Assembly: GCA_020697715.1 (NCBI GenBank)
Contig: JAEHCO010000001.1
Coordinates: forward strand, 448,001-512,000
DNA from: Methanobacteriota archaeon
GTDB lineage: Archaea; Thermoplasmatota; Thermoplasmata; SG8-5; JAGLSY01
Reading direction: 5' to 3'
Length of the DNA stretch: 64,000 nucleotides
Positions 25,654 to 35,652 of this stretch are shown in pieces. Under the pieces are notes generated by a model that saw nothing but the letters and a program-made list of their open reading frames with translations, had not been told where the DNA came from and made no database searches. A program made the position numbers and the translations under genes. Positions within the stretch are counted from its first letter, which is position 1. Each line of letters opens with the position of its first letter.

Positions 25654-26442
25654 TCAGGCGAGCCAGAAAGTGAATGGAATAAGCACTGCCAACAATCCAA
25701 ATAGTATGCAGAACTTTGAGAAATCCACTCGTTTAGCGACTGCCATCAATAGATCCATTGTGAAGAAGCCGAATATGAAGGCAAAGAACCCTGCCACCAA
25801 ATATGGTGTGATACCGACGGATGCCAAGTCCCCGAATACGATGAAATACAATGCTGCGAAAATAGATACTGGCACAGATAGAAGGAAAGAGAATTTCATG
25901 CTGGCTACTTTATCATAATCTCTCATTAACAAGGTTGCCACGGTCATTCCCGATCTGCTGATCCCTGGCAAAACAGAAAGACCTTGAGCGACTCCCAATA
26001 CGATATAATCCTTGTAATTTGCCTTTGAGAGTTTCTTAGGCTTGATCTTATATTCCGCCCTTATTATGAATCCAGTGAGTATGAGTGCCATTCCGATGAA
26101 GACGGTGATAGTGTCTCCAGTCCATAGATTGCTCTCAAAGGTCTCTTCAAGAAGAAGAAGTAATGGGAGAGCGGAGATTATCGAGATGAGTGTGACCGCC
26201 CAGTAGAATAGAGGGATCTTTCCAGAGGTGGGATCCACCATTTGTAATAGGTCCCTGGGATATTTCATGACCACGGAAAAAGCCGTACCGAGATGAATAG
26301 CCAGTCCAAGAGATATGGCCAATCTAGGATCCAGACCAAAGCCATTTATCAGTATTATCGACGATTGCCCCGAGCTGGAGATGGGGAGCCATTCAGTCAC
26401 TCCCTGCATTATTCCAAGTACTATCGCGGTCCACCAATCCAT
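25654..26442 (-). CDS. uppP: Undecaprenyl/polyprenyl-diphosphate phosphatase (BacA family)
   Basis: QGVTEWLPISSSG, HLGT, QGLSVLPGISRSG, FSFLLSVP. Confidence 0.93.
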   Translation of the reverse strand: MDWWTAIVLGIMQGVTEWLPISSSGQSSIILINGFGLDPRLAISLGLAIHLGTAFSVVMKYPRDLLQMVDPTSGKIPLFYWAVTLISIISALPLLLLLEETFESNLWTGDTITVFIGMALILTGFIIRAEYKIKPKKLSKANYKDYIVLGVAQGLSVLPGISRSGMTVATLLMRDYDKVASMKFSFLLSVPVSIFAALYFIVFGDLASVGITPYLVAGFFAFIFGFFTMDLLMAVAKRVDFSKFCILFGLLAVLIPFTFWLA

Positions 26443-26510
26443 GTTTTGGATATTGTATTAATGGATATAATATTAATTGATGTGCTGAGGTCGATTATGG
26501 GTTCAATAGT

Positions 26511-26583
26511 AATTACTGCGTGCTCTTCGTAATATTAACTCCTTCAACAACGACATGTGGTGTTTTCACTAGCAATCCAACTT
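26511..26583 (-). repeat. Displaced 73-bp copy of the tldE/pmbA 3' end (direct repeat of 26682-26754)
   Basis: 68/73 identity; the five mismatches are synonymous third-position transitions; encodes the same VGLLVKTPHVVVEGVNITKSTQ-stop. Confidence 0.95.
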
Positions 26584-26585
26584 TT

Positions 26586-26681
26586 CCCACCCCACTTTTT
26601 TCTTTAACCTCGCTGTGCTGGCCGGGCTCCAAAGAAAAAAGACGGACAAATAAAGAAACTCGCCCGTCTCTGCTCGCTCGG
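26586..26681 (-). mobile_element. Short structured repeat element, copy A (pseudoknot/triple-helix candidate)
   Basis: Homologous to 35446-35544; 11-bp stem 26595-26605/26631-26641; second stem 26621-26627/26662-26668; flanked by the 73-bp duplication. The repeat is seen directly; mobility is inferred. Confidence 0.7.
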
Positions 26682-26683
26682 AA

Positions 26684-28006
26684 TTACTGCGTGCTCTTCG
26701 TAATATTAACTCCTTCAACAACGACATGTGGCGTCTTCACCAGTAACCCAACTTCCCACCAACGTATCTGCTCCGGGTCATTCCCAATATGTTTAATTCG
26801 ATTCAACATATCGGGCATATTCTCCGATATCCGAATGTCCTTGACCGCGCCAGTGATCTTCCCATCCTTGATCTCGAAGACCGCGTCCCTGGGGATGGTG
26901 GAGAAATCCCCAGTTTGATAATTCTGGAATCTCGTGTACCACAAGTTCGTGATGTATAGACCATCTTTGATATCCGCTATCATATCATCTTTAGACATGC
27001 TTCCGGGCGTGATAGCGCAGTTCCACGCTCTCGGGAATACCAAACCCGCATTCCCGGTAGATACGGCGTCATTTAGCTTCGCCGTGCTTGTATTGTGCAG
27101 ATAGGTCTTCAATACCCCATTCTCGATTATCACATTCTTCTGGGTCGGTACCCCTTCACCATCGAAAGGAGGGGATACGACCATCTTCGGATCCGTGCCA
27201 TCATCTATCATTGTGAGGAATTCCGGCCCCACTTTCTCACCGATCTTATCCTTGAAGAAGGACATTCCCGCATCCACGCTTCCAGCAGAAGCCGAGCCTG
27301 CAGCTCTTTCCAGGAAATTTGCAAAGGCCAGTGGGGTGAAGAGAACGTCCACCTTCCCTGTTTTTCCCAGGGAAGGGTTCAATGCTTCCTTCGCCATCAT
27401 GCCAGCTTCCATGCCAATTCTTATGGGATCAAGTTCATCCATATTGCTGACTGATTGTACCATGTGCCCGCTGGCTTCCTTGGACGCGAATGCTCTGAGA
27501 GATATGTCCATGTCGGATCCCGTTTGGCTGCCGATAACATCGCCACTGGTGGCCAGATGCACGGTCCCGCTGGATGAATACAAAACTCCGGCGACCCTAT
27601 TGGCCCCATTCCTCATGGCCGAGTCAATGGCCTGGCCAGTAAGTTCAACAAGCTCCCCCTCCAGATCGGAGATCCTCTTATCATGACCCTCATTTCTATA
27701 ATTGAAGGGGCCATCCGCGATCCCCTGGTAATTCTCGCTCTCTGCCATCATCTTGATGAATGCCAGCATATCGTTAATTGTCTTGTCCAGTGTGTGGAGG
27801 TCATTCACACTGGTGTACATGATCTTCCTGTCTTTGGCCAGGAAGATGTCCACCCCGGTGGATTCCCAGGTCTTGGTTATGGCAACCTCGCTATTGGTGA
27901 ACTTCACTTGTTTTCGCTCACCTTCATGAGCTGAACACACAATGTCATCCGCTCCCTTCTTCCTCGCCTGGTCCACCACGTATCCGGGTATATCTGAAAT
28001 ATCCAT
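26684..28006 (-). CDS. pmbA: TldE/PmbA-family protein
   Basis: FDGEGVPT...IIENGVLKTYLHN, STGNAG, TGDFS; no HExxH; paired with TldD. Confidence 0.9.
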   Translation of the reverse strand: MDISDIPGYVVDQARKKGADDIVCSAHEGERKQVKFTNSEVAITKTWESTGVDIFLAKDRKIMYTSVNDLHTLDKTINDMLAFIKMMAESENYQGIADGPFNYRNEGHDKRISDLEGELVELTGQAIDSAMRNGANRVAGVLYSSSGTVHLATSGDVIGSQTGSDMDISLRAFASKEASGHMVQSVSNMDELDPIRIGMEAGMMAKEALNPSLGKTGKVDVLFTPLAFANFLERAAGSASAGSVDAGMSFFKDKIGEKVGPEFLTMIDDGTDPKMVVSPPFDGEGVPTQKNVIIENGVLKTYLHNTSTAKLNDAVSTGNAGLVFPRAWNCAITPGSMSKDDMIADIKDGLYITNLWYTRFQNYQTGDFSTIPRDAVFEIKDGKITGAVKDIRISENMPDMLNRIKHIGNDPEQIRWWEVGLLVKTPHVVVEGVNITKSTQ

Positions 28007-35445: not shown

Positions 35446-35544
35446 CCCACCCCAATTTCTTCTTTTTAACCTCGCTGTGCTGGCCTGGCTCCAAAAAGAA
35501 GAAGAAGGGTAACAAGAAAAACTCGCCAGGCGCTGCTCGCTCGG
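35446..35544 (-). mobile_element. Short structured repeat element, copy B
   Basis: Shares CCCACCCCA, TTTAACCTCGCTGTGCTGGCC.GGCTCC, AAACTCGCC and CTGCTCGCTCGG with copy A; stems 35457-35467/35493-35503 and 35483-35489/35525-35531. Confidence 0.7.
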
Positions 35545-35652
35545 CAATATATTGAGAGACTGCATTTACAAAGCCCCGTACCACTTTCTTTATATATTAC
35601 ACAAAATCTTGTACCAACAATCCTTTATAAGCAAATACGATTAGTATAGTTC

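Follow-up and report, generated by a model that had tools for sequence, protein, structure and literature searches.

A short structured element between two allele-like copies of a pmbA gene end in a Thermoplasmata archaeon, and the family to which it belongs

Introduction

How does a gene come to have its end twice, with a non-coding element between the two copies and nothing but silent differences separating them? This question is raised by a pmbA/tldE-type metallopeptidase gene on the minus strand of the window, the stretch of 64,000 nucleotides analyzed here, which comes from a metagenome bin (G000). The locus, the element (named E), its relatives in other genomes and the repeats that flank them are described below, and the possible routes by which the paired gene ends arose are weighed against each other.

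Results

The end of pmbA is present on both sides of a 98-nt element

The following features are referred to in the text, by position in the window:

26684..28006, minus strand: pmbA/tldE-type metallopeptidase gene, 440 aa, an open reading frame of which the last 22 codons and the stop form the upstream repeat copy
26755..26760, minus strand: GGTGGG (Trp-Trp-Glu codons), directly upstream of T1; the same hexamer is found at the 3' end of the element
26682..26754, minus strand: T1, the functional gene end, 73 nt including the TAA and 2 nt beyond it
26584..26681, minus strand: element E, copy A, 98 nt, between T1 and T2, an irregular long hairpin with a covarying stem
26511..26583, minus strand: T2, the displaced copy of the gene end, 73 nt, which runs on into the native flank towards uppP
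25654..26442, minus strand: undecaprenyl-diphosphatase gene (BacA/UppP), downstream; Pfam BacA, E-value 1.2e-45
35447..35552, minus strand: element E, copy B, 90.9 bits, without flanking repeat and preceded by a promoter-like module

The product of pmbA contains the first, second and third PmbA_TldD domains of Pfam, and a second gene of the PmbA/TldD family (Pfam) lies upstream of it. The TAA stop codon of pmbA occupies 26686-26684 and the core of E (CCGAG...) begins at 26681, 2 nt past the stop. T1 and T2 form a 73-nt direct repeat that brackets the element, and the element together with one copy of the repeat makes up a unit of 171 nt. The covariance model described below matched copy A at 26585-26689 with 101.5 bits. 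The 3' tail of copy A is A-rich and ends in GTGGGGTGGGAA, and copy B also ends in GGGGTGGGGG. GGTGGG is found before both T1 and T2, with two extra A ahead of T2, and the microhomology that had been noticed earlier at the joint of E and T2 could be seen. The 73-mer occurs at two sites only in the 2.12-Mb assembly; the window contains no N, and the only run of N in the contig lies ~207 kb away.

Alignment of T1 with T2 confirmed exactly what the earlier note had read from the repeat around E. Five mismatches were found, at 26747, 26744, 26741, 26735 and 26732 in T1, corresponding to 26576, 26573, 26570, 26564 and 26561 in T2, and all of them are transitions at codon position 3 and synonymous (GGG/GGA, TTA/TTG, CTG/CTA, AAG/AAA, ACG/ACA). 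They are confined to the first 23 nt of the repeat; the other 50 nt, including the stop codon, are identical. Third positions thus differ in 5 of the 8 codons of the first block and in 0 of the 16 codons beyond it (Fisher p = 0.0013). Between the pmbA genes of G000 and its congener G003, which have 87% nucleotide identity, 143 of 441 third positions differ. The first block of the repeat is at least as diverged as these two species, and the second block is undiverged. The repeat is therefore a mosaic with a breakpoint inside it.

E belongs to a family of structured, gene-less sequences

E was found to be a structured family without genes, the copies of which range from ~92 to 106 nt. In G000, nhmmer identified 19 near-full copies and several fragments, and from these copies a covariance model was built which gave 20 matches in G000, 39 in G003 and 34 in G002. 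Of 41 relatives in Thermoplasmata, 24 carry E: almost every genome of the order does, and its occurrence in other families of the class is patchy. Every genome that carries E is a metagenome bin, and none of the order's 7 genomes that are at least 90% complete is a closed genome with E. Some copies stand in tandem arrays, and some have a promoter-like module ahead of them. Short forms of E are not abundant in G000, where a related shorter hairpin has only 7 copies, and no conserved 5' extension was detected, as the 12 nt upstream of E carry at most 0.43 bit per position. Rfam gave 0 matches at an E-value ≤ 1 over 26300-26900 on both strands. When the whole collection was scanned with a sequence pattern, 51 matches were obtained, nearly all of them chance matches in GC-rich bacteria, and one match in Thermoplasmata was confirmed. 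Carriage of E by viruses was considered and rejected, since the one exact-pattern match in viral contigs failed the covariance model.

The fold of E is a long irregular hairpin in which conserved 5' and 3' motifs pair through tandem G-A mismatches around a variable stem. In a MAFFT alignment of the 19 copies, made independently of the model, 89.3% of the cells are paired, 11 of 17 pairs change on both sides, and 0 of 500 shuffles reached an equal value. An alignment of 84 distinct copies gave 93.3% paired cells, 14 of 17 pairs with changes on both sides and 0 of 500 shuffles as high; this alignment was fitted to the covariance model and hence leans towards it. The stems contain 49 G:U pairs versus 11 A:C pairs, which indicates that the folding strand, be it RNA or single-stranded DNA, is the sense strand of the upstream gene.

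The loop of E contains two T-rich tracts, and the A-rich 3' tail carries one G. For 72 of 79 copies (shuffled mean 33.4) this G is in register with the C in the antiparallel tract, and for 48 of 74 (shuffled mean 26.6) with the C in the parallel one. A control with exact runs gave 10.9 versus 9.3 nt, a weak difference because the strands are of low complexity. The register of the tracts would be that needed for a U.A-U / C.G-C triple helix, and, given low-complexity sequences in copies that share ancestry, such a helix is kept as a lead.

Long repeats of local sequence flank more than half of the copies compared

Flanks of 250 nt were compared for 79 copies of E, comprising the 19 from G000 and the first 60 of 115 usable places in relatives. 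In 44 of the 79, a direct repeat between the flanks scored above the 99th percentile of controls with swapped flanks. The repeats consist of local sequence and are 16-225 nt long. The downstream repeat starts between -14 and +9 nt from the 3' end of the model in 42 of the 44, the other two being a tandem array and a weak match. The upstream repeat ends between +6 and -220 nt relative to the start of E, and the intervening 'leader' is not conserved.

The targets of E are 3' ends of protein genes and of tRNAs. Among the latter are a tRNA-Ser gene with a duplicated 3' end and a tRNA-Leu gene which E abuts tail to tail, and one subfamily has its joints in tRNA T-loops and in GGTTCGA sequences that resemble them. 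Long repeats at stop codons, which the earlier note had proposed to look for at other copies of E, are indeed found there, and they are found at tRNA 3' ends as well. The GGTGGG joint is not universal: other subfamilies have other tails. At C11:818067 the microhomology at the joint is AAAAAGTG. No distant upstream copy of the sequence that follows E, as would mark larger autonomous forms, was found within 30 kb of any copy in G000.

In some loci T1 and T2 are identical (40 of 40 positions, or 53 of 53), and unrelated sequence begins right after each copy.

The paired gene ends differ like alleles

Codon positions were compared at 28 loci, chosen because an open frame of 60 codons or more runs through the upstream copy; three arrays (L150, L165 and L139) and the tRNA-Ser locus were dropped before the count. 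Mismatches at the first, second and third codon positions numbered 26, 15 and 112, so that 112 of 153 (73%) fall on third positions, and 103 of the differing codons are synonymous versus 31 that are non-synonymous. Among the 20 loci with three or more mismatches, third positions make up the majority in 16. Against the 0.44 expected for decay of a dead copy, which is a rough estimate, the excess has p = 2e-13. In all 14 loci whose alignment reaches the stop codon, the displaced copy keeps its stop at the homologous place. At L120, L137, L127, L119 and L160 the nucleotide similarity fades ahead of the stop, yet both copies reach an in-frame stop at the same distance, and at L119 the two tails are alike only at the protein level.

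The bias towards third positions and synonymous changes, together with the kept stops, does not fit a duplication followed by neutral decay and indicates that the two ends are alleles of diverged lineages. Duplication with neutral decay is accordingly rejected for the family by the codon-position pattern, and for pmbA it is unlikely. The view of the earlier note that both copies look like working gene ends is in this way borne out family-wide, as is its statement that the arrangement is not an ordinary short target-site duplication, given the length of the repeats and their allele-like divergence. Translation of T2 by read-through was also considered. At pmbA, E and T2 are in frame and open, but over the 28 loci the offsets between T1 and T2 are distributed 10/10/8 modulo 3; the displaced copy is thus not kept by read-through, and the in-frame arrangement at pmbA is due to chance. 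Between genomes, T2 copies differ by 8/3/11 at the three codon positions and are less third-biased than T1 copies, which differ by 6/1/17.

Orthologous loci and the direction of transfer at pmbA

In G003, an E with the same stem is found at the same stop codon of pmbA, but its 3' half and any T2 have been replaced by other DNA. G004 has a short E-like hairpin behind pmbA, and in other relatives a single pmbA end is followed by unrelated sequence. An empty pmbA site with the same flanks was not found among the relatives compared. At the five variable sites G003 has the T2 state throughout. A closer relative, present in sequencing run X1, has the T1 state at 2 sites, the T2 state at 1 and neither at 2; the contigs of this run (share 0.04) contain a ~90%-identical pmbA and stop at the gene end, with the joints of E uncovered. 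The comparison of orthologues that had been suggested for finding the ancestral allele thus gave a uniform answer in G003 and a mixed one in the relative in X1, and the two disagree on the direction in which the transfer would have taken place.

Single loci with empty or variant alleles

Empty sites were found for two members of the family. At one of them, an empty (C2) and a filled (C15, 599 nt) allele of one gene, 91% identical, coexist in the bin. T2 and its flank in C15 are collinear with the empty site C2. The insert begins just ahead of the native stop and provides a TAA immediately, and the junction-proximal part of T2 has indels.

The other empty site is in G001, in the gene at C22:239286, which is filled in both G000 and G003 with the same joint. 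Both T2 copies share states that are absent from both T1 copies and from the empty allele (GAA versus GAG), and the T2 copies of G000 and G003 differ from each other at five places, all of them third positions. Counted on the sequences, fewer differences separate the empty allele of G001 from the T1 copies than from the T2 copies, which indicates that the displaced copy is not just the resident end left as it was. Behind T2 in G000 come an unrelated spacer of 7 nt and the initial 9 nt of a further E. The leader behind T1 has no relation to the sequence behind T2, yet each runs into an identical 9-nt start of E. In G003, T2 is succeeded by a third gene end, which is decayed.

Joints are also shared between more distant genomes. 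One gene has the same joint of E and T2 in G002 and G004, which belong to different genera, and in G004 a non-canonical T1 end is followed by ~430 nt, a variant of E and then a canonical T2. Cases of the same gene with other joints are found in G002 and in G014 (L153). A joint at the T-loop-like GGTTCGA motif is common to G014 and G018 and, by our reading of the alignment output, also to G000, which belongs to a different family; here T1 and T2 are near-identical within each genome and far apart between genomes. Targets with the same joint are likewise ~25-35% apart between genomes at C22:215155 versus L115 and at C32:19132 versus L149 and L127.

Candidate enzymes

Profile searches for enzymes were made in G000, which is 93.8% complete. 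Neither the reverse transcriptase RVT_1 (PF00078) nor DDE_Tnp_1 (PF01609), the one DDE family covered, had a match in G000, and no TnpB was found there. One match to a tyrosine recombinase (PF00589) and one IS200-type Y1 transposase gene were identified. Searches of 22 genomes of the order identified Y1_Tnp in 16, among them G000, with one copy or a few in each (families f1-f4). Across 10 genomes of the order the Y1 gene has 52-66% amino-acid identity and partly conserved neighbours. Its protein scored 23.9 against the RAYT model, below the cut-off of 80. E lies within 3 kb of the Y1 gene in 1 of 12 genomes checked, and shorter E-like hairpins are found 1.5-2.5 kb from it in G000, G003 and G001; in two E-carrying genomes, which are 91 and 94% complete, no Y1 gene was found. 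The Y1 gene is therefore taken as a lead and not as the partner of E.

Discussion

Origin of the paired gene ends

The reading to which we give about an even chance is that the 171-nt unit at pmbA is a real insertion of E, in which a cassette made up of a gene end, a leader and E joined the alleles of two lineages. E would travel as such a small cassette, with a short leader, and would enter the same gene of a related lineage via a crossover inside the shared gene end, and the 3' end of E would stay fused to a point in the gene interior at a short G-rich microhomology. As a result of a crossover in the shared end, the gene would retain a complete end, T1, and the displaced T2 would be left behind E. 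Arrival as a cassette accounts best for pairs with differences throughout, for leaders that vary, for the arrangement in G004 and for the joints shared between genomes. Against it, loci with perfect repeats and unrelated neighbours fit an identical duplication at birth better, the indels near the junction in the T2 of C15 are as would be expected of a dead copy, the T2 copies of different genomes show a weaker third-position bias than the T1 copies, and at C22:239286 the empty allele is nearer to T1 than to T2. A circle or cassette of 171 nt is also without a known carrier: G000 gave no match to RVT_1, DDE_Tnp_1 or TnpB and a single one to a tyrosine recombinase, and none of its copies of E has a distant T1 within 30 kb.

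The pmbA locus is fitted equally well if 73 nt or more of the gene were duplicated identically at the insertion, guided by microhomology or made by a staggered cut, and the copies came to differ later through allele replacement or gene conversion. Either a diverged tract was then imported up to a point inside T1, where it had to stop ahead of the element because E is heterologous, or gene conversion re-homogenised the last 50 nt only. Such a history, which is considered possible though somewhat unlikely, best explains the perfect repeats between unrelated neighbours, the decayed 5' edge of T2 in C15 and the similarity of T1 and T2 within genomes; their near-identity there, next to same-joint targets that differ by ~25-35% between genomes, points to concerted evolution or to recurrent site-specific insertion. 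The microhomology at the right joint, GGTGGG at pmbA and AAAAAGTG at C11:818067, is in line with it, and a source of diverged sequence is at hand, as related lineages of 76-91% identity coexist in the sample. It fares less well at L156 and L128, where the pairs differ with coding-like changes over the whole repeat to the stop (~80% identity), and at L119 with its similarity near the stop only as protein; all three would need very diverged imports that ended exactly in the leader or in E. The unrelated sequences that precede the same 9-nt start of E at C22:239286 also speak against it.

Two further explanations were weighed. If two strains each had identical copies, the assembler could have taken T1 from one and T2 from the other. 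The bin of 34 contigs does hold short contigs that are 73-91% identical to parts of long ones, and the variable blocks are separated by 150 nt of identity (the 50 nt and E), more than common k-mer sizes. Each variable block, however, lies within 23 nt of unique context, so that, judging from the behaviour of assemblers, both joints would be real molecules, and a chimera needs opposite choices of strain at two bubbles 171 nt apart. For the family, C22:239286 argues against an artefact, since two species that were assembled separately have in common T2 states that are missing from the T1 copies and from the empty allele; the third, decayed gene end and the non-canonical T1 ends lie on single contigs as well. 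A phasing error at pmbA is held to be improbable on these grounds. Least credible, and given very little weight, is that the copies were identical and that point substitutions alone produced five silent changes in a T1 under selection with T2 unchanged by chance. The silence of all five changes and the T2 state of G003 at all five sites would agree with this. Yet the dead 73-nt copy has about three times as many free sites as the 24 wobble positions of T1 and has not acquired a change of its own, the five differences are gathered in 8 codons and absent from the next 16 (p as above), and the T1 state shared by the relative in X1 at 2 of the 5 sites indicates that the T1 states are not all new.

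Comparison with known systems

Among described phenomena, insertion with long target duplication comes nearest. It was described for restriction-modification genes of bacteria, and in that paper's account of its screen no archaeal case survived; the repeats measure 46 to ~420 bp, are often imperfect and in some cases overlap the 3' end of a gene, and the inserts, which contain no transposase, face a single copy in the empty genome, with the mechanism given as unknown (Furuta, Abe and Kobayashi, 2010; PMC2853133). E resembles these inserts in its local repeats of >30 bp (73 nt at pmbA), its single-copy empty sites and the lack of a mobility gene. It differs in its conserved non-coding fold of 100 nt with tens of copies per genome, in having its 3' end always as the joint and in repeats with coding-type divergence. 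An earlier paper on insertion with long target duplication was reportedly published by Nobusato in 2000.

The nearest logic is that of integrative elements which restore the gene end they displace. Elements with tyrosine integrases that target 3' ends of tRNA or protein genes and bring a replacement end are mentioned in the same work (PMC2853133). E shares with them a gene end on both sides, a gene that is kept whole and copies that can differ; unlike them, it has no gene in its 98-nt insert and many targets instead of one attachment site, and G000 has a single tyrosine recombinase. Classes of T-loop sublocation among integrative elements are said to have been defined by Williams in 2002. From a derivative of a DDE transposon, such as a MITE and including the IS1634 group, E is set apart by repeats of 16-225 nt with 73% of mismatches at third positions, in place of an identical duplication.

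REP/REPIN sequences with RAYT and the mini-elements of IS200/IS605 are described as short, abundant, strand-specific hairpins at gene 3' ends (PMC2817692, PMC3116915). E, too, is a short strand-specific hairpin at gene 3' ends in an order with a lone IS200-type Y1 gene; unlike in REPIN/RAYT systems, this gene rarely adjoins E and stays below the RAYT cut-off. REP/REPIN sequences and IS200/IS605 mini-elements are not known to make long flank repeats. SINE-type retroposition proceeds by target-primed reverse transcription. E is like SINEs in its A-rich 3' tail as the fixed joint, its variable 5' side, its variable target repeats and some promoter-like modules, and unlike them in that RVT_1 had no match in G000 and in repeats that reach 225 nt and differ like alleles.

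Finally, triple helices between an ENE and an A-rich tract protect RNA 3' ends in viruses, in vertebrate lncRNAs and in plant and fungal transposon RNAs, and the available text of the review mentions no archaeal case (PMC13541005). With two U-rich tracts inside a stem and an A-rich tract at the 3' end, E would resemble an ENE, as far as can be judged from its sequence and from copies that are related. In the literature on long target duplication, archaeal triple helices, MITEs, RAYT and illegitimate recombination, no description of the E family was found. Its small, abundant, non-coding fold sets the family apart from the nearest known systems.

A more far-reaching reading, which we consider distinctly unlikely, is that E copies are non-autonomous cassettes of single-stranded DNA that overwrite gene ends across species and are at the same time the first archaeal protectors of 3' ends by triple helix. 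A precise cut at the 3' side and a loose one at the 5' side, perhaps made by the order's lone IS200-type Y1 transposase, would let E carry off the end of the gene behind which it sits. In other lineages, a short guide-like motif would mark the point at which it enters this gene again, in a homing-like manner with the enzyme acting in trans, and in the host mRNA the U-rich clamp and the A-rich tail would form the triple helix.

Meaning for the archaea that carry E

If the reading of E as a cassette that joins alleles is true, a tiny non-coding element repeatedly unites gene ends of different archaeal lineages and leaves essential genes intact. E would then offer lineages an inexpensive means of exchange, and in uncultured archaea its presence would by itself mark recombination breakpoints. 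The family also provides a concrete object for asking how insertion with long target duplication works and whether archaeal mRNAs use triple-helix 3' ends.

The element E at the end of pmbA

Behind pmbA, the element E and the displaced copy of the gene end (T2) form an open frame (window 26513-26683, minus strand) that is in frame with the gene, and hypothetical read-through of the TAA would add 56 residues and terminate in the second copy of the C-terminus. A meaningful arrangement was rejected, since the offsets in 28 loci show that the frame match is due to chance.

Seven short contigs of G000, the metagenome bin that contains the window, are related to its long contigs:

C6, C10, C14, C15, C17, C20 and C21: 73-91% identity to segments of the long contigs

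Therefore, the bin includes fragments of related lineages or paralogues. One gene is present in the bin in two states, with E inserted at its end on C15 and as the empty allele on C2.

Sequences associated with E

Two further sequences accompany copies of E:

Window 35553-35640, upstream of E copy B; also G000 C29:70000-71100: conserved module of ∼55 nt
L002 (contig C22 of the congener G003), about 1418-1500; G000 C11:637385-637545: second small, hairpin-rich insert of ∼60 nt

The module consists of an AT-rich, TATA-like box between two TGGTAC-type half-repeats. It precedes copy B and, in a tandem array, stands between the E copies, and it may be a promoter of free-standing E transcripts. In two different copies of E, the hairpin-rich insert is nested at the identical position within the loop.

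A shorter relative of E and the Y1 transposase

Outside the window, the following features were identified in G000:

C1:18231, C1:19241, C4:1942, C4:2900, C4:4643, C7:129 and C19:136: shorter relative of E
C1:16359-16709: lone IS200/IS605-type Y1 transposase gene

The shorter relative is ∼60-70 nt long in G000 and contains a short hairpin flanked by the motifs CCGAGCAGG and CCAGCGCAGG, both in common with E, and a G-rich tail at its end. Copies are ∼1 kb apart, as if each repeat went with a single gene. The distance to the transposase gene, the only IS200-type one in G000, is 1.5 kb for one copy and 2.5 kb for another, and the related genomes G003 and G001 each have a copy at a similar distance from such a gene. 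In G004, another related genome, a copy is located directly 3' of pmbA.

With the RAYT model, the G000 Y1 transposase scored under the model cut-off. Its orthologues in 10 genomes of the order share 52-66% amino-acid identity, and the gene neighborhood is partly kept across the same genomes. Such conservation is atypical of an insertion sequence and resembles that of a domesticated transposase.
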